Shown here piece after piece: positions 1 to 63,686 of a stretch of DNA of 64,000 bases; position 1 is the first letter of the stretch; each line of letters opens with the position of its first letter. The position numbers and the translations under genes were made by a program. A model generated the notes under the pieces. It had not been told where the DNA came from. It searched no databases and worked only from the letters and a program-made list of their open reading frames with translations. The stretch comes from Candidatus Omnitrophota bacterium (GTDB taxonomy: Bacteria; Omnitrophota; Gorgyraeia; JAFGHF01), in NCBI GenBank assembly GCA_020341815.1, contig CP070837.1, positions 311,035 through 375,034 on the forward strand, given 5' to 3'.

Positions 1-30
1 AAAACACTCACAGAAGTCGGCAAAAAAACA

Positions 31-143
31 ATCACTGAAACCACTGAAAAGAAAGGAGACGCTGAAACCACTGAAGAGTAAACACTGAAACCACTGAAGT
101 TTTTTTCAGTGTTCTCAGTGCTATTAATTCAGTGCCCTCAGTG
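31..143. repeat. Family-1 repeat element, copy A: three direct CACTGAAACCACTGAA units, a T7 run, then two inverted CAGTGNNCTCAGTG units. Immediately upstream of rpsC.
   Basis: Direct reading. The same unit architecture recurs at 11165-11250, 34562-34626 and 63573-63678. Forms an imperfect long hairpin. Confidence 0.75.
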
Positions 144-151
144 TAACGAGA

Positions 152-1447: not shown

Positions 1448-1673
1448 AAAAGGCACGGTTGTTAGCGACAAAATGGATAAGACCATTGTGGTAAGAGTAG
1501 AGAGGCTTACCAAACACCCGAAATACGGTCGTGTTATATGGCGTGCCAGCAAATTTAAGGTTCACGATCGAGAAAACCAAGCTAAGATGGGCGACAAAGT
1601 GCGGATAATGGAAACCCGCCCGCTTTCCAAAGAGAAAAGATGGCGGCTTATAGAAGTAGTATCTAGTCGCTAG
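1416..1673 (+). CDS. rpsQ: 30S ribosomal protein S17. The start could instead be the internal ATG near 1473 (MDKTIVV).
   Basis: [30 protein letters not shown], the S17 signature. Its stop TAG lies inside the family-2 repeat. Confidence 0.9.
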
Positions 1674-1776
1674 TATTTAGTCGTTAGTATTTGATATTTA
1701 GTAAAATAAAAAACAATAAAAAACTTTTAACTAGATACTAGATACAAGCGACCAGCGACTGTGAGGAGCGAAGCGA
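1657..1776. repeat. Family-2 repeat element, copy 1: direct TAGTATC/TAGTCGC 7-mers, an AT-rich core, then inverted CTAGATACTAGATACAAGCGAC units. Overlaps the rpsQ stop codon.
   Basis: Direct reading. Homologous copies at 47821-47910 and 62718-62810 share the ...AGTCGTTAGTAT...AGTAAAA...AACTAGATAC(T/C)AGATAC(A/T)AGCGAC(T/C)AGCGACT core. Confidence 0.75.
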
Positions 1777-1782
1777 CGAACA

Positions 1783-4557: not shown

Positions 4558-5187
4558 ATGGCGGAGAAAAAATCACAAAAAAAAGCAGAAGAGACGAAAC
4601 AGGCCCGCCTAAAGACTGGCGGACAGGCCCGCCCGCCCTCGGCTTCGCCGAGAGGCGAGACGGCGAGGCAGGAAGAGCTGAAACAGCCGGAATTAATAGA
4701 AAAAGTAGTTGCTGTTAATCGCACTGCAAAAGTAGTTAAGGGTGGCCGGCGTTTCGCATTTAGCGCTTTGGTAGTGGTGGGGGATGCTTGCGGTAATCTG
4801 GGTTATGGCTTCGGCAAGGCGCGTGAAGTGGCTGAGGCCATTCGTAAAGGTTTAAATGCAGCCAAGAAACATATGTTTAAGGTTTCCTTAAAAGATACCA
4901 CCATTATTCATGAAATTGAAGGAAAGTTTAGCGCGGCAAGAGTTATTTTAAAGCCCGCCTCAAAAGGAACAGGGGTAATTGCCGGCGGGGCGGTGAGAGC
5001 GGTATGTGAAGCCGCGGGAATTAAGGATATATTAACTAAAAGTATTCGTTCCGATAATCCTATCAATGTAGCCAGGGCCGCTATCGAAGGTCTGCTTAGT
5101 CTGAAAACTGAAAAAACTCAAAGTCAAACTTTCATAGATGAGTCTGAGGCTGAGGCCGAAGAAGAGGCAACTGATGCGACTCAATGA
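4558..5187 (+). CDS. rpsE: 30S ribosomal protein S5, with a basic N-terminal and an acidic C-terminal extension
   Basis: Core [27 protein letters not shown] is S5. The 209 aa length is longer than a typical S5. Confidence 0.9.
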
Positions 5188-10176: not shown

Positions 10177-11160
10177 ATGGGAGTTAAATGGAGAAATTTT
10201 GAAATGCCGAAGAGATTGGAATGTGATGAGTCCACATATTCTGATTCTTATGCCAAATTTATTGCGGAGCCTTTTGAACGAGGATATGGCATTACTGTCG
10301 GCAACTCTTTGCGAAGGATATTGATTTCTTCCATAGAGGGTAGTGCCGTCACTTCTGTTAAGATTGAAGGGGTATTGCACGAATTTTCCAGTATTCCCGG
10401 AGTTGTCGAAGATGTCCCTGAGATTATCTTAAATATCAAAAGGCTCATCTTGCGCGCACACACTAAAAACCCTAAGACCATTTTTATTAAAATAGAAAAG
10501 AAGGGAGACGTCAAGGCCCGGGATATCATTACGGATGAGACCGTTGAGGTCATCAATCCCGATTTGCACATCGCTACGCTTTCTAAAAATACGAAGTTTT
10601 ATGTGGAGATGGAAGTGGGGCGCGGCAGGGGTTATGTCTCTGCGGAAAAAAACAAAAAAGAATCCCATGCTCTGGGAGTCATACCTGTAGACTCGATATT
10701 TTCACCGGTAACAAGAGTAAATTTCCATGTGGAAAACACCCGCGTAGGGCAGATGACCGATTATGAGCGGCTTATTCTGGAGGTCTGGACCAATAAAAGC
10801 ATGAACCCTAAAGACAGTCTGCTTTATGCCTCTAACATACTGCAGAAACACCTGGAGGTATTTGTCGGCTTCGGTCAGTTGCCCGAAGAAGAGGTAGCCG
10901 AAGAAAGCGAAGAGGATCAGGAGCTCTATGAAAAATTAAGGCAGCCTATTTCCGAGCTTGAGCTTTCGGTAAGAAGCGTCAATTGCCTGGAGGAGGCAAA
11001 AATCAAGACTATCGGAGACCTGGTGCAGAAGACAGAGATGGAAATGCTCAAATACAGAAACTTTGGCAAAAAGTCTTTAACCGAGATCAACAATATTCTT
11101 AAATCGTTATCTTTGTCTTTAGGGATGAAAGTAGACACAAAGAGATTGAAGAAAAAATAA
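10177..11160 (+). CDS. rpoA: DNA-directed RNA polymerase alpha subunit
   Basis: 327 aa with NSLRRILISSIEG... and a C-terminal alphaCTD (ELSVRSVNCLEEAKIKTIGDL). Confidence 0.95.
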   Translation: MGVKWRNFEMPKRLECDESTYSDSYAKFIAEPFERGYGITVGNSLRRILISSIEGSAVTSVKIEGVLHEFSSIPGVVEDVPEIILNIKRLILRAHTKNPKTIFIKIEKKGDVKARDIITDETVEVINPDLHIATLSKNTKFYVEMEVGRGRGYVSAEKNKKESHALGVIPVDSIFSPVTRVNFHVENTRVGQMTDYERLILEVWTNKSMNPKDSLLYASNILQKHLEVFVGFGQLPEEEVAEESEEDQELYEKLRQPISELELSVRSVNCLEEAKIKTIGDLVQKTEMEMLKYRNFGKKSLTEINNILKSLSLSLGMKVDTKRLKKK

Positions 11161-11164
11161 GGAG

Positions 11165-11250
11165 ACACTGAAACCACTGAAAAATAATCACTGAAACCAC
11201 TGAAGTTTTTCTTTCAGTCTTCTCAGTGATAATTTCAGTCTTCTCAGTGA
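11165..11250. repeat. Family-1 repeat element, copy B: two direct CACTGAAACCACTGAA units, a T-run, then two inverted TTTCAGTCTTCTCAGTGAT units. Sits between rpoA and rplQ.
   Basis: Direct reading. Same unit as copies A, C and D. Confidence 0.75.
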
Positions 11251-11258
11251 TTACAAAA

Positions 11259-11786: not shown

Positions 11787-11901
11787 ACCCAGCCCTTCCA
11801 AATACCACGCCTTGCTATAATAGCTATGGATAAAAGCAATAGATAAAAGGAAGGATGGGGATAAAGGCTTGACATTATCAAGAAAGGAAGGGCTGGGTGA
11901 A
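11784..11901 (+). promoter_or_regulatory. Family-3 element, diverged copy 1. Runs from the rplQ stop codon TGA to the GTG start of the downstream aminotransferase. Closed by the inverted repeat ACCCAGCCCTTCC / GGAAGGGCTGGGT. Contains TGCTATAAT (extended -10-like) and TTGACA.
   Basis: Aligns end-to-end with 29353-29469 and 31021-31137. Shows a compensatory C>A / G>T change in the terminal stem relative to the other copies. Confidence 0.6.
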
Positions 11902-13063
11902 AATAGCCCGAAGAGTAACAGAAGTTGCTCCTTCGCTGACCCTGGAAATTACATCTTTGGCAAGAAAAATGAAAGAGCAGGGCGGAAAAATAGTTAATTT
12001 TGCCGCCGGAGAGCCGGATTCGGATACCCCCGAATATATAAAAAAGGCGGCAATAGAAGCTATCGAGCAAGGATTTACTAAATATACGCCCGCAGCAGGA
12101 TGGCCGAAGCTAAAAGAAGCTATATCTAAAAAGTTCAAAAAAGAGAATCAGCTAAGCTATTCCCCCGAACAAATCGTTGTCAGCTGCGGGGCGAAGCACG
12201 CCCTCTATAATATCCTGCAGGTCCTCTGCGAAAAAGAAGATGAAGTAATTATTGCCTCTCCCTACTGGGTAAGTTACCCTGAGATGGTAAAACTGGCAGG
12301 GGCAACCGCGCATATTGTGCAAACCCAACCCCAGAATCAGTTCAAATTAGATAAAAGATCATTAGCCTCCGCTATTACCAAAAAAACTAAAGCAGTTATT
12401 CTTAATAGCCCCGCAAACCCTACCGGCTCTGTCTATTCCCAGGATGAACTTGAGGAAATCTGCGCTCTGGCGGTTGAACGGAACTTTTATATAATAAGCG
12501 ACGAAATATATGAAAAATTTATTTTTGACGGAAAGAAACACATCTCTTGCGCCTCCCTGAATGAAGAGATTTACAGGCGCACTATAGTAGTCAATGGGGT
12601 ATCCAAAAGTTACTCTATGACCGGATGGAGAATCGGCTACCTGGCCTCACCAGATGAGAAAATAATCCAGGCAATAAAAAAACTACAAAGTCATTCTACC
12701 TCCAATCCCTGTTCAATTAGCCAAAAGGCCGCATATCAGGCTTTAGAGAAGACAGACAAAACCCAAATGCAAAAGATGCTGAAGAGCTTCCAGGAAAGAC
12801 GCGATTGCATGCTGAGGGGCTTGGATGAGATTTCCGGTTTATCTTATATAAAGCCGGAAGGCGCATTTTATGTATTTTGCGACATCTCTCAATTAAAACT
12901 GGACTCGATTACTTTTTGCCGAAAACTGCTTGAAGAGGCCGAAATAGCCGCTGTTCCGGGTGAGGCATTCGGTCGAGATGATTATATCCGTTTGAGTTTT
13001 GCTACAAGCAGGAATGAAATAGAAGAAGGCCTGCGCAGATTAAAGAAATGGGTTACACGATAG
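11897..13063 (+). CDS. Aspartate (or aspartate/prephenate) aminotransferase, class I. GTG start supplied by the family-3 element.
   Basis: Strong similarity in pattern to Thermus-type AspAT: NFAAGEPDSDTP, SPYWVSYPEMV, NSPANPTG, SKSYSMTGWRIGY (PLP lysine). Confidence 0.85.
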   Translation: MKIARRVTEVAPSLTLEITSLARKMKEQGGKIVNFAAGEPDSDTPEYIKKAAIEAIEQGFTKYTPAAGWPKLKEAISKKFKKENQLSYSPEQIVVSCGAKHALYNILQVLCEKEDEVIIASPYWVSYPEMVKLAGATAHIVQTQPQNQFKLDKRSLASAITKKTKAVILNSPANPTGSVYSQDELEEICALAVERNFYIISDEIYEKFIFDGKKHISCASLNEEIYRRTIVVNGVSKSYSMTGWRIGYLASPDEKIIQAIKKLQSHSTSNPCSISQKAAYQALEKTDKTQMQKMLKSFQERRDCMLRGLDEISGLSYIKPEGAFYVFCDISQLKLDSITFCRKLLEEAEIAAVPGEAFGRDDYIRLSFATSRNEIEEGLRRLKKWVTR

Positions 13064-14304
13064 CAGAAAAAATACTTTCTCAACACAGCCGCAAGAAGGT
13101 CAAAGCCGGCGATACAGCCCTTTGCGATATAGACTTTTGCTTCGGTCAGGACGGAACCTCGGAACTTGTAATTGACAGCTTCCTGGGGCTAGGCAAAAAA
13201 AGGGTCTTTGACAAAGAGAAGTTTTGTATAGTAATTGACCACAGCACCCCCAGCCCAAGAGAGGCTATTTCCAACATCCATCAGAAATTGAGAAAATTCA
13301 CTCAGAAACAAGGAACCTTACTTTTTGATGTGGGTTGCGGTGTCTGTCACCAGGTAATCCCCCAGGCCGGACTTATTCTACCGGGAAATTTGGTAGTAGG
13401 TGCGGATTCGCATACCTGTACCTACGGAGCGCTTAATGCCTTTGCCTGCGGTCTCGGCTCAACTGACGTAGCCGTGGCCTTGGCCAGCGGCAAAAATTGG
13501 TTTAGAGTCCCTGAGACAATTAAATTGATTGTAAAGGGGAAGTTACCCAAAGGGGTAACGGCCAAGGATATCATTCTCTATATAATCGGGCAACTGGGCG
13601 CCAATGGCTGCACATACATGGCGGTAGAGTTTACCGGATGCGTTATTGATAAGTTAGGTATGGACGGGCGCTTTACCATCAGCAATATGGGCGTAGAGAT
13701 GGGTGCTAAATGTGCTTTGTTTTGCGCAGACGAAAAGACACTGAATTGGTTAAAAGGACGCACAATAAAGAAATTTAAATCTGTTTTTGCGGATAAAAAT
13801 GCCGATTATAAAGAGATTAAGGAGTTTGACATTTCAAAGCTGTCTCCTCAGGTGGCTTCTCCTCACAGCGTAGATAATGTAAACAATATCGATGAGGTTC
13901 TGGGTACAAAGATTGATGTGGCCTTTCTGGGGACCTGCACCAACGGCAGATTAGATGATTTGAAGGCAGCGGCAAAAATCTTAAGAGGAAGGCACGTTAA
14001 AAAAGGGGTAAGGCTGGTTGTAGCTCCGGCCTCAAAAGAGATATATTTAGAGGCTGCCCGCCTTAAGATCTTGGAAGTTTTCCTGGGGGCCGGAGGCGTA
14101 ATTTTACCTCCCGGCTGCGGGCCTTGCGTGGGTACGCACGCAGGCGTGCCGGCAGATAATGAGGTAGTCATCTCCTCGGCAAATAGAAATTTCAAAGGAA
14201 GAATGGGTAATCCGCGCGCTTCTATCTTCCTTGCTTCACCCTTGACTCTGGCTGCCTCAGCTATCGAGGGCAAAATAGCTGATGCGCGAAAATACAGCAA
14301 ATAA
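13048..14304 (+). CDS. LeuC-family dehydratase large subunit (3-isopropylmalate dehydratase, homoaconitase or aconitase-like). Substrate unresolved.
   Basis: 418 aa with DSHTCTYGALNAFACGLGSTDVA and GCGPCVG Fe-S cluster motifs of the aconitase superfamily. Archaeal-type short form. Confidence 0.8.
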   Translation: MGYTIAEKILSQHSRKKVKAGDTALCDIDFCFGQDGTSELVIDSFLGLGKKRVFDKEKFCIVIDHSTPSPREAISNIHQKLRKFTQKQGTLLFDVGCGVCHQVIPQAGLILPGNLVVGADSHTCTYGALNAFACGLGSTDVAVALASGKNWFRVPETIKLIVKGKLPKGVTAKDIILYIIGQLGANGCTYMAVEFTGCVIDKLGMDGRFTISNMGVEMGAKCALFCADEKTLNWLKGRTIKKFKSVFADKNADYKEIKEFDISKLSPQVASPHSVDNVNNIDEVLGTKIDVAFLGTCTNGRLDDLKAAAKILRGRHVKKGVRLVVAPASKEIYLEAARLKILEVFLGAGGVILPPGCGPCVGTHAGVPADNEVVISSANRNFKGRMGNPRASIFLASPLTLAASAIEGKIADARKYSK

Positions 14305-29350: not shown

Positions 29351-29352
29351 AA

Positions 29353-29469
29353 TGAACCCCGCCCTTCCAAACATCACGCTTTGCATAATAGATATAGGCA
29401 AAGATAATAAAAGAAAGGGCGGAATAAAATTTAACCTTGGCCTTACGAAGAAAGGAAGGGCGGGGTGAA
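29353..29469 (+). promoter_or_regulatory. Family-3 element, copy 2. Runs from TGA just after the upstream stop to the GTG start of the downstream gene. Inverted repeat ACCCCGCCCTTCC / GGAAGGGCGGGGT.
   Basis: About 98% identical to 31021-31137. Ends AAGAAAGGAAGGGCGGGGTGAA, where the GTG is the start of ORF 29465. Confidence 0.7.
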
Positions 29470-31017: not shown

Positions 31018-31020
31018 GGG

Positions 31021-31137
31021 TGAACCCCGCCCTTCCAAATATCACGCTTTGCATAATAGATATAGGCAAAGATAATAAAAGAAAGGGCGGAATAAAATTT
31101 AACCTTGGCCTTACGAAGAAAGGAAGGGCGGGGTGAA
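31021..31137 (+). promoter_or_regulatory. Family-3 element, copy 3 (near-identical to copy 2). Runs from TGA after the aroQ stop to the GTG start of pepP.
   Basis: Direct alignment to 29353-29469. Ends GGAAGGGCGGGGTGAA with the GTG at 31133. Confidence 0.7.
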
Positions 31138-33206: not shown

Positions 33207-34562
33207 ATGTTTTCTAAAGTCCTGATTGCCAATCGGGGAGAGATTGCTTTAAGGATTATCCGCGCCTGCAAAGAAATGGGCGTGCGCACCGTAGCGGTCT
33301 ACTCCCAGCCCGATGTTAATTCTCTACACGTGCGTCTGGCGGATGAGGCCATCTGTATCGGCCGCGCCGCGCCGGCTGAGAGCTATCTGAGCATCCCCAG
33401 CATTATCAGCGCAGCCGAGATTGCCGATGTGGAAGCCATCCATCCCGGTTATGGCTTTCTGGCGGAAAATGCCCACTTTGCGGAAATCTGCGCTTCCTGT
33501 AACATCAATTTCATCGGGCCAAAGCCTGAGCCGATGAGGTTAATGGGCGATAAGCTGCAGGCGAAGGCCACTATGCGCAAGGCCGGAATACCGGTTGTGC
33601 CCGGCAGCACAGAAGCGGTGCAGGACAAAGACAAGGCCATAAAGATTGCCCAGCGGCTTAAATATCCGGTGATTATTAAGGCCGCAGCCGGAGGCGGCGG
33701 CAAAGGAATGCGCGTATGCCATAACGATGTGCGCCTGGTCAGCGCCCTGCTTACAGCCCAGGCGGAGGCAGAGGCAGCTTTCGGCAAGCCGGAGGTCTAC
33801 ATAGAGAAATATTTTTCCCGGCCGCGCCATATAGAGTTTCAAATCCTGGCGGATAACTTTGGGCGCATAATTCATTTAGGGGAAAGGGACTGCACTATCC
33901 AAAGACGCCATCAGAAGCTAATCGAAGAATCGCCCTCTATGGCTATCAATGCTAAACTGCGCAAACGTATGGGGGAGGCCGCCATCAAGGCCGCCAAGTC
34001 CGTCAATTACAATAGCGCAGGCACCATAGAATTTCTTCTTGATGAAAAAAACAATTTTTATTTTTTGGAAATGAATACGCGTATTCAGGTTGAGCACGGC
34101 GTTACCGAAATGGTTACGGGCGTAGACCTGCTCAAAGAGCAAATCAGGATTGCCGCGGGAGAGAAATTACGCCTTAACCAGGACGATGTCAAAATAAAAG
34201 GATGGGCAATGGAGTGCCGCATCAACGCCGAAGACCCCAACAACAACTTCACGCCTTCCCCTGGAAGGATCACCTCCTACAATGTCCCGGGCGGACCGGG
34301 GGTGCGCGTTGACAGCTGCGTATATCAGAATTATAATATCCTGCCTTATTATGATTCCCTGATTGCCAAGCTGATTGCGCACGGCAAAACAAGGAATGAG
34401 GCCATCCGGATTATGCTGCGGGCGCTTGAGGAATACGTAATCGAACCGGTAAAGACGACTCTGCCTTTTTGCAGAGACGTATTGAACGACGCGCGCTTCT
34501 TGAGAGGCAAGGTTTATACAGATTTTACGGATATCTTGATTTCCGAAAAACAAAAAGAGTAA
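33207..34562 (+). CDS. accC: Biotin carboxylase
   Basis: 451 aa ATP-grasp with [21 protein letters not shown]-terminus. Immediately downstream of accB. Confidence 0.95.
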
Positions 34563-34626
34563 CACTGAGGACACTGAAAGAAAAATTTCAGTGGTTTCAG
34601 TGTAACAATTTCAGTGATTTCAGTGA
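34562..34626. repeat. Family-1 repeat element, copy C: one direct ACACTGAGGACACTGAAAG unit, an A/T spacer, then two inverted units (TCAGTGGTTTCAGTG and TCAGTGATTTCAGTGA). Begins at the accC stop codon.
   Basis: Direct reading. Same CACTGA(A/G)-based unit as copies A, B and D. Confidence 0.7.
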
Positions 34627-34642
34627 TAAAAGGGAGGTAAAA

Positions 34643-47213: not shown

Positions 47214-47818
47214 TTTTGATTTCGCTTCCGATTTTCTTTATTGCGGTTGTGATTCATGAATATGCCCATGGCTGGGTGGCCTACAAATTAGGCGACCCCA
47301 CGGCGAAGTATGCCGGCAGGCTTACTCTCAACCCCCTGGCCCATATAGATATGATGGGAACGATAGTTCTGCCGCTTCTGTTAATCATGATGCGTTCTCC
47401 GTTTATCTTCGGCTGGGCAAAGCCTGTGCCCATAAACTTTGCTCTTCTGCGCCGGCCCAGGCAGGATATATTCTGGGTAAGCATAGCAGGGATTGCCGCT
47501 AATCTCTTACTGGCTGTATTTCTTGCTTTTTTATTAAGAATAAGGCTATTTCCGCTTAACAGCTATGGCTGGCTATTTTTAAATTACGGAATTATCATCA
47601 ATTTAGTGCTGGCGGTTTTTAACGCCATCCCCATACCGCCCTTGGACGGCTCAAAAATTCTGTTGCGATTTTTACCCACGGATTTGGCCCGTTCATATCT
47701 TCAGCTTGAGCGTTTCGGTTTTCTTATCCTCATAATCCTTTTGTGGATGGGGCTATTAAGAAAGATTATCTGGCCGTTGGTAATAACCCTGGCCCGTAGT
47801 TTAGGAGTAAGCTTTTAA
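47210..47818 (+). CDS. Site-2 protease family (M50) zinc metalloprotease
   Basis: HEYAHGWVAYKLGD HExxH motif in TM1. Conserved LNP...D and PIPPLDG motifs. ATGA overlap with the upstream gene. Confidence 0.8.
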   Translation: MILISLPIFFIAVVIHEYAHGWVAYKLGDPTAKYAGRLTLNPLAHIDMMGTIVLPLLLIMMRSPFIFGWAKPVPINFALLRRPRQDIFWVSIAGIAANLLLAVFLAFLLRIRLFPLNSYGWLFLNYGIIINLVLAVFNAIPIPPLDGSKILLRFLPTDLARSYLQLERFGFLILIILLWMGLLRKIIWPLVITLARSLGVSF

Positions 47819-47820
47819 AA

Positions 47821-47910
47821 CAGTATTTAGTCGTTCGTATTTCGTATCTAGTAAAACAAAAAAATAATAAAAATTTTTAACAAGATACTAGATACTAGCG
47901 ACTAGATACT
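47821..47910. repeat. Family-2 repeat element, copy 2
   Basis: CAGTATTTAGTCGTTCGTATTTCGTATCTAGTAAAACAAAAAAATAATAAAAATTTTTAACAAGATACTAGATACTAGCGACTAGATACT aligns with copies at 1657 and 62718. Confidence 0.75.
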
Positions 47911-47927
47911 ATATAGAAGAAAAAATT

Positions 47928-49022
47928 ATGAAGAAATTAAAAGTTAATTTAGGCGAAAGAAGCTATTCTATCATAATCGGCAAAGGGTGCCTGACTAAGC
48001 TAAAAGGTATTGTCAAAAAGCTTAAGCTTGGAAAGGTAATTGCGGTAGTTACCAATCCTACAATCAACCGCTTGCACGGGGCCCTGATGCAAAAGGCGCT
48101 TAGAGGTTCGGCGGCCGAGGTGCATTTTGTAGAGGTGCCCGATAGCGAGGAGAGTAAGTCCGCTCAAGTATGCATCAGTCTGATTGAAAGGTTTGCCGAG
48201 CTGGACAGGGGAAAGGGCTTGAGCCTGATTGCCTTTGGCGGAGGAGTGATTGGAGATTTGACCGGCTTTTGCGCCTCTGTTTACAGAAGGGGCATCCCTT
48301 ATATTCAGGTACCCACAACGTTGCTGGCCCAGGTAGATTCAAGCATCGGAGGCAAAACGGCTATCGATTTGGCCAGCGCAAAGAACCTGATTGGCTCTTT
48401 TTACCAGCCGCGCCTGGTCTTAAGCGAATTGCGCTTTTTAAGCTCGCTGCCCGAGGCCCAGATAAAAGAGGCCTTAGCGGAAATCATCAAATATGCAATT
48501 ATTGCCGATAGCCGGCTTTTTCAATTTTTAGAAAAAAATCTTGAAGCTATATTGGCGTTGGAGCAGAAAAAAATAGAATATATCGTAGAGACCTGCTGCC
48601 GGATTAAAGCAAATGTCGTAGAGCAGGACGAAACCGATAAAAAGGACAAAAGAATAATCTTGAATTTCGGACATACAACGGCTCATGCCCTGGAGGCAGC
48701 CGCCGGTTACGGAGAAGATTATACCCATGGCTATTCCGTAGCCTTAGGGATATTGGTGGCCTGTGAAATCGCAAGAGAATTAAAGCTGATTCATGGCAAA
48801 GCCGCAGAACGGATAGAAGCGCTTATTGCAAGGGCGGGGCTGCCCACTAAAATATCGCAGCTTAAGCTGGAGGATATCTTAAAAGCCCAGGCCCACGATA
48901 AAAAATTTATTGGCGGAAAAAATCGCTTTGTGCTGCCTTTGGCTATTGGCAAGACCGTGGTCAGGGAAAACGTATCTAAAACAACTATCGTAAAAGCGAT
49001 AAAATCAAAAATGGGGAGGTGA
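47928..49022 (+). CDS. aroB: 3-dehydroquinate synthase
   Basis: GGGVIGDLTGF...VPTTLLAQVDSSIGGKTAID...H...H metal and NAD motifs of DHQS. 364 aa. Confidence 0.9.
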   Translation: MKKLKVNLGERSYSIIIGKGCLTKLKGIVKKLKLGKVIAVVTNPTINRLHGALMQKALRGSAAEVHFVEVPDSEESKSAQVCISLIERFAELDRGKGLSLIAFGGGVIGDLTGFCASVYRRGIPYIQVPTTLLAQVDSSIGGKTAIDLASAKNLIGSFYQPRLVLSELRFLSSLPEAQIKEALAEIIKYAIIADSRLFQFLEKNLEAILALEQKKIEYIVETCCRIKANVVEQDETDKKDKRIILNFGHTTAHALEAAAGYGEDYTHGYSVALGILVACEIARELKLIHGKAAERIEALIARAGLPTKISQLKLEDILKAQAHDKKFIGGKNRFVLPLAIGKTVVRENVSKTTIVKAIKSKMGR

Positions 49023-54589: not shown

Positions 54590-54601
54590 AGCCGATAAGC
54601 T

Positions 54602-62102: not shown

Positions 62103-62720
62103 ATGTTTAATAAAATAAAAAATAATTTTCTTACCGGGCTTGTGGTAATCCTTCCTCTTATTCTTACTATAATAATTTTCCGATTTCTGATAAAACAGAT
62201 TAACGATATTGTGCTGGTGCCGACAATGGAATTATTGGGTCTGCATTTCTATAATCCTTATTGGGTATATATATCCAGAGGCATCGGTTTTTTGATTATA
62301 GTTCTACTTATAATCTTAATCGGCCTGGCAACGAGATTGCTTCTCTTGCGTAAATTTTTCGGCTTCTGGGAAAAGCTGATAGCAAAAGTGCCGATGCTCG
62401 GCAAAATCTATATTACTATAAAACAGATAAGCCGCGCATTTTTAGGGCAGGGTAAATATGTATTTGATAAGGTGGTACTGGTCGAGTATCCGCGCCGGGG
62501 CATATATTCCCTGGGTTTTATTACAGCCGAAGGCTGCGAAGAAATCCAGGAAAAGACTAAAACAGGCAGCGTTTATGTCTTTTTACCCACTACCCCTAAC
62601 CCTACCAACGGCTTCTTCTTAATCATCCCCAAAGAGGAGGTCGTACCGCTTTCGATGTCCGTGGCCGATGCTTTTAAACTTATTGTTTCCGGCGGAACCT
62701 TCTCGCCGCCACATAAATAG
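62103..62720 (+). CDS. DUF502-family membrane protein
   Basis: 205 aa with two N-terminal TM helices and the conserved core of the DUF502 (COG2928) family. Its stop TAG is the first base triplet of the family-2 repeat. Confidence 0.6.
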   Translation: MFNKIKNNFLTGLVVILPLILTIIIFRFLIKQINDIVLVPTMELLGLHFYNPYWVYISRGIGFLIIVLLIILIGLATRLLLLRKFFGFWEKLIAKVPMLGKIYITIKQISRAFLGQGKYVFDKVVLVEYPRRGIYSLGFITAEGCEEIQEKTKTGSVYVFLPTTPNPTNGFFLIIPKEEVVPLSMSVADAFKLIVSGGTFSPPHK

Positions 62721-62810
62721 TATCTAGTATCTAGTCGTTAGTATCTAGTTAAAATTTTTTTGTCTTTTACTAGATACCAGATACAAGCGACTAGCGACTA
62801 ATTAGCGACT
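62718..62810. repeat. Family-2 repeat element, copy 3: (TAGTATC)x2, TAGTCGT, TAGTATC, an AT-rich core, then inverted ACTAGATACCAGATACAAGCGACTAGCGACT
   Basis: Direct reading. Aligns with copies at 1657 and 47821. Begins with the stop codon of the upstream gene. Confidence 0.75.
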
Positions 62811-62816
62811 AATAAT

Positions 62817-63578
62817 ATGGCTATCCAGAAAAGCGAAGCGATTGTCTTGAAAACTTCTGACTTTCGCGAAACCAGCCTCGTGGTAAATCTTTTCACAAAG
62901 GATTTTGGCAAGCTCGGCGGCCTCATCAAAGGCATAAGGCTTACCCCCCAAAGATACGGGGGAATGCCTCTGATTTTCTCCCGCAGCTCCATTGTGTTTT
63001 ATCAAAATCCCAAAAGAGATTTAAGCCTGGTTACCCAGTGCGATGCCCAGGAACAATTCCTGCCTATCCGGGAAGATTTAGAAAAGACCGCTTACGCCAA
63101 TTATTTTCTCGAGCTTCTGGATACGGTTACCCAGGATTATGATAAAAACGAAAGGCTTTTTGAATTAACGGTCGATGCCTTAAGAGCCCTTTGTCATACC
63201 CGGGAAAGCTGGCGGATTGCCCGCATATTCGAAATTCGGCTTTTGAATTTTTCAGGGTTTAAGCCGCGCCTGGATTCCTGCGTCAACTGCCAAAAAGAGA
63301 TTGTTCAAGAGGCCCGCCTAAAGACTGGCGGGCAGGGCAGATTTAGTTCAATCCTGGGAGGCATACTTTGTGAGCGCTGCTTTGGGCATGATAAAAATGC
63401 CCAGGCAACACTAAAAGGAACCCTGGCCTCCATAGAGTATATTGAAAAATCGGACTGGTCCAAGGCACTGCGTCTTAAAATAGCTCCTGATATAGCGGCA
63501 GAGCTGGTAACCATTTTGAATAGCTTCCTGGATATCCACTTAGACAAAGAGATCAAATCCCGAAAATTTTTACACTGA
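62817..63578 (+). CDS. recO: DNA repair protein RecO
   Basis: MAIQKSEAIVLKTSDFRETSLVV OB-fold N-terminus. C-terminal CVNCQKE...CERC zinc finger. Confidence 0.85.
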   Translation: MAIQKSEAIVLKTSDFRETSLVVNLFTKDFGKLGGLIKGIRLTPQRYGGMPLIFSRSSIVFYQNPKRDLSLVTQCDAQEQFLPIREDLEKTAYANYFLELLDTVTQDYDKNERLFELTVDALRALCHTRESWRIARIFEIRLLNFSGFKPRLDSCVNCQKEIVQEARLKTGGQGRFSSILGGILCERCFGHDKNAQATLKGTLASIEYIEKSDWSKALRLKIAPDIAAELVTILNSFLDIHLDKEIKSRKFLH

Positions 63579-63678
63579 GGGCGCTGAATTATCACTGAAA
63601 GCACTGAAAAAAATGACACTGAGAACACTGAATAAAACTCAGCGGCCTCAGTGGTCACTCTTCAGTGATTTCAGTGAC
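63573..63678. repeat. Family-1 repeat element, copy D: three direct CACTGA-based units then inverted units (CTCAGCGGCCTCAGTGG and CTTCAGTGATTTCAGTGAC). The recO stop TGA is the CACTGA of the first unit.
   Basis: Direct reading. Same architecture as copies A-C. Confidence 0.7.
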
Positions 63679-63686
63679 AAAAATTC

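Follow-up and report, generated by a model that had tools for sequence, protein, structure and literature searches.

What are the short repeats, built of tandem heptamers, that separate neighbouring genes at three places in a genome with otherwise little room between its genes? The question is raised by a 64-kb stretch of contig CP070837.1 (hereafter the window), part of a 1.55-Mb metagenome-assembled genome of Candidatus Omnitrophota; its L14, RecO, and AroB proteins match, at 100% identity, proteins that NCBI assigns to Candidatus Omnitrophota, and copy counts below refer to this window. Its G+C content is 44%, nearly all of its genes lie on the + strand and intergenic spacers are scarce, almost every spacer longer than ~60 nt containing a member of one of three families of hairpin repeats: the heptamer-armed element considered here, a family based on CACTGAA units and a family of 110-nt elements closed by CCCGCCCTTCC/GGAAGGGCGGG. 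The heptamer-armed element occurs three times, and Pfam assigns the products of the flanking genes to S17 and L14 (copy 1, rpsQ-rplN), M50 peptidase and 3-dehydroquinate synthase (copy 2, M50-aroB), and DUF502 and RecO (copy 3, DUF502-recO), in agreement with the genes named in the original prediction, an earlier reading of this DNA made from its letters. With a probability of roughly 0.6, the family is best explained as small, AT-rich, non-coding palindromic insertions, similar to MITEs (miniature transposable elements with inverted repeats) or to repetitive extragenic palindromic (REP) sequences, which are near-neutral and co-transcribed with their neighbours as a self-contained hairpin. These are recent insertions, and probably selfish ones.

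The repeat family is real, and its dispersed copies are homologous to one another. Sequence comparison confirms that a single family occupies the three places that had been proposed. Each copy consists of a left array of TAGTATY/TAGTCGY heptamers (TAGTATC and TAGTCGC, or TAGTATT and TAGTCGT with a final T), which an A/T core 19-27 nt long separates from an inverted right array built of AGATACN/AGCGACN; each array holds four to six units. Homology between copies runs from AGTAT to (AT/CG)ACT, and the elements are 83-104 nt long, or 124 bp at rpsQ-rplN if an additional tail is counted (see below). The strict 7-nt periodicity claimed for the arms also holds. Tandem Repeats Finder reports a period of 7 or 14 at 1657-1703, 47883-47915, and 62718-62749, and the in-phase pattern GTMKY-NN-GTMKY-NN-GTMKY is matched 13 times in the window versus 0.01 expected from shuffles; all 13 matches fall within the three loci, those of the left arms on the + strand and those of the right arms on the - strand. 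As + strand RNA, each locus is moreover predicted to fold into a long imperfect hairpin, in which 6-bp helices are split by single mismatches (-28.8 kcal/mol and a z-score of -4.5 for copy 1, -29.9 kcal/mol and -7.9 for copy 2, -24.8 kcal/mol and -3.0 for copy 3). A regular-expression scan for pairs of left and right arms returns exactly three hits in the 64 kb and none in 35 kb of a 92%-identical relative.

Comparison with related contigs identifies the element as inserted DNA. At rpsQ-rplN, the collinear contig L243 (sample SRR24270831; 92-94% nucleotide identity to the window) is empty, its two genes overlapping as GAGGTTATTAAATGA, and the window has 124 extra bases by comparison (1658-1781). 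The same site is filled by a homologous 90-nt element in L244, L247, and L249, whose nucleotide identity to the window is ~78%, whereas L245, L246, L248, and L250 are empty, with the sequence of L243 and overlapping genes; L244 (filled) and L245 (empty) are nonetheless contigs that are 99.8-99.9% identical. At DUF502-recO, the site is empty in L251, which comes from the same sample as L243 and whose flanking genes are 91-94% identical in nucleotides to those of the window (3-nt spacer), as well as in L252-L255, whose RecO is 80% identical (4-nt spacer). At M50-aroB, it is empty in L257 and L258 (AroB 74% identical), where the genes share an ATGA overlap. Since relatives lack the element at all three sites, it is an insertion and, as far as the assembled contigs can tell, one that is polymorphic down to strain level. 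Its targets are A/T-rich junctions (TTATTAAATGA, AAATCTATGA, AAAATAAAAAATG) between the stop and the start of co-directional genes, which in relatives overlap (ATGA) or lie 3-4 nt apart. The original prediction had set presence or absence in orthologous spacers as a check beforehand, and these spacers proved empty at all three sites, one of the pairs consisting of the 99.9%-identical contigs. It had also counted absence from relatives, if unaccompanied by target-site duplications, against mobility; this part does not stand, as absence is itself evidence of insertion and the lack of duplications argues only against a classical cut-and-paste MITE.

The two other hairpin families of the window are likewise missing or shorter in the 92%-identical relative. 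The second family, in which CACTGAA(AC) units and the complementary TTCAGTG enclose a T-run, is found between rplV and rpsC, between rpoA and rplQ, 3' of a biotin carboxylase gene, and 3' of recO; in the 92%-identical relative L243, the rpoA-rplQ copy is missing and the rplV-rpsC and recO copies are shorter. The third family comprises 110-nt elements with the ends CCC(A/G)CCCTTCC...GGAAGGG(C/G)(T/G)GG, and two of its copies are 99% identical to each other. Its copy 3' of rplQ is not present in L243, where the genes overlap, and GTGA flanks the insert on both sides, representing a possible 4-nt target duplication. L245 and the 99.9%-identical L244 differ by further inserts, one of 145 nt, palindromic, between adk and map (10841-10985 in L245), and one of 290 nt between rpsK and rpsD (12937-13225), the latter called as a 103-aa open reading frame (ORF) without a Pfam match. 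In addition, rpsE carries an in-frame, GC-rich, partly palindromic 69-nt insertion that adds 23 residues to S5 relative to L243 (209 versus 186 aa) and resembles a palindromic element tolerated within coding sequence. A cold-shock-domain gene lies between the HU gene and hisS in L252-L254 (1607-1810), and is missing from the window (~54590-54601) and from L251.

The coordinates of the three copies and of the other repeats of the window are collected in Table 1. The inverted arms, ~31-46 nt long, amount to terminal inverted repeats that are built of tandem heptamers and contain no unique repeat. The description of the element as a giant palindrome was right as to the inverted arms with their heptamer period, but the arms are not complementary unit by unit. 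The right arm is the better conserved of the two, its units following the order AT-AT-CG-CG in both copy 1 and copy 3, whose left arms are not alike; the arms can therefore pair only with slips of register and a 1x1 mismatch at each 7-nt step. Over 89 nt, copies 1 and 2 share 83% identity. For the core of copy 3, the reverse complement gives the better alignment with these two (scores of 13 versus 6.5 and 9 versus 4.5), and copy 3 was therefore probably inserted in the opposite orientation.

Table 1. Positions in the window of the parts of the three heptamer-armed copies and of other repeats mentioned in the text
Feature	Position	Strand	Sequence or remark
Copy 1, left arm	1657..1702	+	TAGTATC TAGTCGC TAGTATT TAGTCGT TAGTATT TGATATT TAGT; codes for the last S17 residues (VSSR); rpsQ stop TAG at 1671-1673 inside the arm
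Copy 1, A-rich core	1703..1729	+	hairpin loop
Copy 1, right arm	1730..1760	+	ACT AGATACT AGATACA AGCGACC AGCGACT
Copy 1, tail	1761..1782	+	GTGAGGAGCGAAGCGACGAACA; Shine-Dalgarno-like GAGGAG at 1763-1768; rplN ATG at 1783
Copy 2, left arm	47821..47852	+	CAGTATT TAGTCGT TCGTATT TCGTATC TAGT
Copy 2, A-rich core	47853..47879	+	orientation as copy 1
Copy 2, right arm	47880..47910	+	ACA AGATACT AGATACT AGCGACT AGATACT; aroB ATG at 47928
Copy 3, left arm	62718..62749	+	TAGTATC TAGTATC TAGTCGT TAGTATC TAGT; first TAG is the DUF502 stop (62718-62720)
Copy 3, T-rich core	62750..62768	+	probably inverted relative to copies 1 and 2
Copy 3, right arm	62769..62799	+	ACT AGATACC AGATACA AGCGACT AGCGACT
Copy 3, 11-nt tandem duplication	62792..62813	+	TAGCGACTAAT x2; covers the right end of the element and its flank; recO ATG at 62817
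CACTGAA family	24-146		
CACTGAA family	11157-11255		
CACTGAA family	34560-34631		
CACTGAA family	63584-63682		
110-nt family	11787-11896		
110-nt family	29351-29464		
110-nt family	31018-31132		
rpsE insertion	4604-4668		within ORF 4558-5187

The position of the arrays relative to the neighbouring codons had been overstated in part. Of the three copies, each said to start on a TAG stop codon, only that of DUF502 does so: the rpsQ stop is the third unit of its array, which therefore overlaps the last rpsQ codons, and the M50 gene ends with TAA (47816-47818), 2 nt before its array. The statement that a TAG of the array serves as the upstream stop is nonetheless correct for both rpsQ and DUF502. 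On the other side, the right arms finish 5-22 nt ahead of the start codons. The spacers have a G+C content of 14-30%. The element has no coding capacity, and every copy contains stop codons in all six reading frames, since a TAG or TAA returns every 7 nt and 7 has no common factor with 3. As a consequence, an upstream ORF is shut within a few codons; thus, S17 ends in EVVSSR instead of EVIK in both filled lineages, its last codons being derived from the element. The 22-nt tail with GAGGAG that follows the right arm of copy 1 is counted as inserted DNA because it is missing at the empty sites and present only in the filled rpsQ-rplN alleles, i.e., those of the window and L244 lineages.

In the mechanism that we propose, the operon mRNA would carry the element along passively in the form of a self-contained hairpin of ~26-30 bp, mismatched at every seventh position, and access to the region where downstream translation starts would be much the same as for other genes; it is because the downstream start stays accessible that the insertion would be tolerated and near neutral. 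In the modelled RNAs, opening the downstream start region costs 8.5-10.0 kcal, compared with a median of 7.8 kcal (interquartile range 6.3-10.0) for 54 genes of the window, so that the predicted accessibility of the start at element-bearing junctions is ordinary. New copies would arise by a trans-acting activity on the heptamer arrays or on a single-strand hairpin. Given that no target-site duplication is seen, this would not be classical DDE cut-and-paste; candidates are a hairpin-dependent single-strand transposase, and template switching or gene conversion between arrays. Filled alleles may then spread across related strains by recombination. The functional null results detailed below, the dispensability of the element in sibling strains, and its positions in essential operons together favour a tolerated insertion and disfavour a regulator, a terminator, or a DNA-binding array.

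Several observations weigh against this account. No target-site duplication is definable when filled and empty sites are compared at the three loci, and some junction bases are replaced, not merely interrupted, as illustrated by GAAGTA in both filled rpsQ alleles versus GAGGTT in both empty ones. Age could have erased such duplications, yet one of these comparisons involves contigs that are 99.9% identical to each other. The private tail at rpsQ-rplN, common to lineages that are ~78% identical, makes the filled alleles one shared allele and not independent insertions. No extended recombination tract surrounds this filled allele: L244 equals L245 up to ~10 nt from the element, which leaves room for a very short tract at most if recombination moved the allele. 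At the M50-aroB junction of L256 (1254-1292; Omnitrophota GCA_030616185.1), another heptamer direct array, of the TAGTTCG type (TAGTTAT GAGTTCG TAGTTCA TAGTTCG GAGTTAA), stands without an inverted partner, which hints that arrays can also arise in place. Moreover, no partner transposase was found in ~0.9 Mb of related or array-bearing loci, and by eye the ORFs lying between distant inverted arrays, considered as a possible autonomous parent element, resemble ordinary genes. The visible copies number only three, all of them in a 64-kb window of a 1.55-Mb genome. Finally, the sense strand folds better in 11 of the 15 hairpins of this type that have co-directional neighbours, and some selection at the RNA level is therefore possible.

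The heptamer array itself is far more widely distributed than the complete element. Exact matches to the left-arm pattern AGTATYTAGTCGTTNGTATYT are present in at least 120 metagenome contigs, which, among the matches listed, are mostly non-redundant and range from 26 to 53% G+C, with a median of 36%. Also among the matches listed, none of 133 arrays lies inside an ORF; 58 show the commonest layout, ~30 nt upstream of a start codon with AAATACT/AACGACT on the sense strand, 20 directly follow a stop codon, and about one-fifth have an inverted partner array nearby according to a strict pattern. Period 7 dominates among the tandem repeats of array-bearing loci, and the other period-7 units of these loci, which were selected for their arrays, often include AGT/ACT. 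Three of the eight proteins looked up from array-bearing contigs fall in clusters with NCBI members named Candidatus Atribacteria. Carriage of the array by viruses was considered and rejected, with only three matches in all (2 and 1) among the 2.9 million viral contigs searched. A degenerate four-unit scan of a genome collection was too loose and picked up generic arrays of heptamers in many phyla. The matches listed include arrays whose units are related, some of them as hairpins, from genomes with the titles Omnitrophota, Flavobacteriales, Nitrospirae, Planctomycetota, Clostridia, and others. A general "NAGTNNN" rule for heptamer arrays was also dropped, since the arrays of other phyla use other second bases and have no orientation bias.

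This distribution can be read in a broader way, possible but doubtful, in which the TAGTATY/TAGTCGY array is the recognition module of an undescribed system that spans phyla (Omnitrophota, Atribacterota, and others). Such a module could take two forms. It may mark a new mobile element with tandem-heptamer ends, which targets stop/start junctions without target duplication. Alternatively, the heptamers may be bound by a conserved protein that recognises single-stranded nucleic acid and acts on the initiation of translation; the arrays, the TAACTGA repeats of Beggiatoaceae, and the heptamer repeats of cyanobacteria would then be one and the same unexplained phenomenon.

Other features recur in the array-bearing contigs. 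Many of those in the L122-L241 set (e.g., L138, L222, L168, and L215), some of them from Atribacterota, contain long non-coding mosaics of several heptamer families, namely TAGTATT/TAGTCGT, ACAAGAT/GCGAGAT, CCGGTCA, and TTCAGTT, in which inverted arrays often enclose other palindromic modules; a tail, ATTTTCGACGAAGGAG, recurs between array and start codon in these contigs. In GC-rich contigs (L261, at 12109-12131, L103, and L120), one of them viral and the other two bearing the titles Pirellulales and Planctomycetota, an ATG follows 4-5 nt after the end of arrays such as AGATACG AGATACG AGCGACG AGCGACC, and the viral one has the same unit order, AT-AT-CG-CG, as the right arm of copies 1 and 3 of the window.

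Among the explanations that compete with a tolerated insertion, a functional intercistronic RNA hairpin survives best, even though we consider it unlikely. The transcribed element would then serve for RNase III-type processing, stabilise the mRNA, or restore translational coupling; in this last case, a ribosome that stops in the left arm would open the stem and make the downstream start available. Consistent with this, the copies lie on the sense strand of co-transcribed genes, with the upstream stop within or beside the 5' arm. The consensus fold of four homologues contains 26 pairs, and at four stem positions U.G and C.G pairs replace each other, as expected if the + strand is the one that pairs; however, this fold shows no covariation, with a single compensatory pair out of 26 and a covariation term of +0.5. 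The 11:4 bias toward better folding of the sense strand is likewise only suggestive of selection on the RNA, as strand-asymmetric C-to-T mutation could explain it equally well, and both the L244 copy, which folds better on the antisense strand, and the probably inverted core of copy 3 speak against it. When a ribosome is modelled on the upstream stop, the opening cost falls from 8.5 to 4.0 kcal for copy 2 and from 10.7 to 6.8 kcal for copy 3, but climbs from 10.1 to 11.6 kcal for copy 1, i.e., without any coupling effect. With an effect in two copies out of three and ordinary accessibility of the downstream start, translational coupling was not adopted as the main account. Furthermore, an element with an important function would have to be reconciled with its dispensability in 99.9%-identical strains and its absence, at all sites, from the 92%-identical relative. 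Assignment to a known class of structured RNA, which the original prediction had named as a possible refutation, did not come about: Rfam 15 at the gathering threshold yields only a tRNA in the window and nothing at the elements, and a cutoff relaxed to E ≤ 1 brings up no match at copy 1 or copy 3 either.

Less probable again is growth in place, whereby polymerase slippage nucleates heptamer arrays at A/T-rich junctions and fold-back or template-switch replication turns them into palindromes. Among the long simple-sequence repeats of prokaryotes, heptanucleotide repeats are reported to be the most frequent class (Mrazek 2007, as relayed in PMC4679880). Such a process would also be in line with the dominance of period 7 in array-bearing loci, the allelic variation in unit number at rpsQ-rplN (6+4 in the window versus 4+4 in L244), the lack of target-site duplications, the unrelated array at the M50-aroB junction of L256, and the nearly loopless structure of some metagenome hairpins, e.g., that of L157. 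Nevertheless, the copies of the window share, besides their units, an A/T core, as seen in the similarity of copies 1 and 2 over 89 nt and, in reverse, in copy 3, and independent growth in place would not yield such a common core. The recurrence of an identical 21-nt unit order in at least 120 largely non-redundant contigs also speaks against it.

It is very improbable that the arrays are binding sites on double-stranded DNA, of an iteron-like or TTTTGAT-heptad-like kind, for a dimeric or oligomeric protein controlling transcription, replication, or chromosome structure. Strict tandem heptads with inverted symmetry and the better conserved right arm (AT-AT-CG-CG in copies 1 and 3) would suit such a role, and heptad arrays bound by a transcription factor are a precedent (10.1101/2021.05.14.444153). 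However, a scan for sigma-70-type promoters gives no site inside any of the three copies, nor is there a promoter-like site beside them; the copies lie within or between ribosomal-protein operons, sibling strains do without the element, and a spacing of 7 bp sets successive sites ~240 degrees apart on B-DNA. Neither a candidate binding protein nor an origin context was found, and the suggestion that the element is an array of iterons or of sites for a dimeric binder is not upheld.

Intrinsic terminators or attenuators at operon ends are scarcely credible: stable hairpins are predicted immediately after stop codons and rpsQ-rplN is the boundary between the S10 and spc operons in E. coli, but the AT-rich stems are interrupted by mismatches at regular intervals and the right arms are not followed by a T-run, a scan for hairpins followed by T-runs finds no terminator at the three sites, a sister hairpin family lies within operons (rplV-rpsC and rpoA-rplQ), and close relatives lack the elements. 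Three further ideas were also dropped, namely HutP-type (UAG-N4)3 RNA sites, for want of a test or a fit, integron attC sites, whose core sites differ and with which the housekeeping functions of the neighbouring genes do not agree, and DnaA-trios, whose period is 3 and not 7.

If the element is a tolerated insertion, as we favour, the very compact genomes of an uncultivated phylum still gain small insertions, even between translationally coupled ribosomal-protein genes. Features that would make it tolerable are the immediate stops in every frame, the self-contained hairpin, and a ribosome-binding site that is left untouched or replaced. Its presence or absence at the level of strains provides ready markers for the population genomics of Omnitrophota. 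In addition, the recurrence of the 21-nt unit order in many unrelated low-GC metagenome contigs, including those of Atribacterota, ties the element to the puzzle of why heptamers dominate the long simple-sequence repeats of prokaryotes and cluster upstream of start codons, a puzzle that gains here a concrete sequence family together with pairs of filled and empty sites. The importance of the family could rise through this recurrence of an exact unit order across phyla and through its link to the unexplained intergenic heptamer repeats.

Literature searches returned no description of such elements in Omnitrophota or Atribacterota, and the closest comparisons come from other bacteria. Among heptamer repeats, the TAACTGA arrays of Beggiatoaceae, cyanobacteria, and Bacteroidetes are intergenic direct repeats of a single unit, without predicted secondary structure (MacGregor 2015; PMC4679880). 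The present element resembles them, and long heptanucleotide simple-sequence repeats as a wider class (Mrazek 2007), by its 7-nt period, by the stop codons of its units, which confine the arrays to intergenic DNA, by its position just upstream of start codons, including those of ribosomal-protein operons, and by its patchy distribution across phyla. It differs from them by its two alternating types of unit, by the inverted pairing of the arrays into a predicted hairpin, and by the core that its dispersed copies share. The TTTTGAT heptads of the Vibrio cholerae ctxAB promoter and the iterons of plasmids are likewise tandem short repeats offering potential multiple binding sites; they are located in promoters or origins and act on double-stranded DNA, whereas the present element has neither context and is one that near-identical strains can do without.

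REP sequences are 20-40 bp long, carry an unpaired GTAG or CGTC tag, and are thought to be moved by a tyrosine transposase that recognises the hairpin (PMC3733652). As with REPs, the bacterial interspersed mosaic elements (BIMEs) and their REP-associated tyrosine transposases (RAYTs), we are dealing with an extragenic palindrome located between co-directional genes and 3' of coding regions, plausibly transcribed and without target duplication. The element is atypical of REPs, as had been pointed out from its periodicity, in its size (83-104 bp), its AT-rich composition, and its inconsistent tag; GTAG precedes only copy 1 and the L244 copy, with ATAG at copy 3 and ACAG at copy 2, and membership of the REP family on the basis of this tag was rejected.

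Prokaryotic MITEs are non-coding, AT-rich elements of less than 500 bp with inverted ends, which occupy AT-rich intergenic targets as polymorphic dispersed copies and give rise to stem-loop transcripts (PMC10969869). Like Correia/NEMIS, RUP, ERIC, and the QMITEs of Coxiella, the heptamer-armed element is short, non-coding, and AT-rich, has inverted ends and AT-rich intergenic sites, and exists in multiple dispersed copies whose presence varies by strain and which are predicted to be co-transcribed as a stem-loop. Unlike these MITEs, it shows no target-site duplication, no related insertion sequence was found in the loci examined, and it is inserted exactly at stop/start junctions, where a few nucleotides are replaced; its inverted ends, moreover, are tandem 7-nt arrays that fill almost the whole element. 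It is nonetheless best filed with the MITE/REP kind, as an element of a familiar class but of unusual build, whose arms are heptamer arrays.

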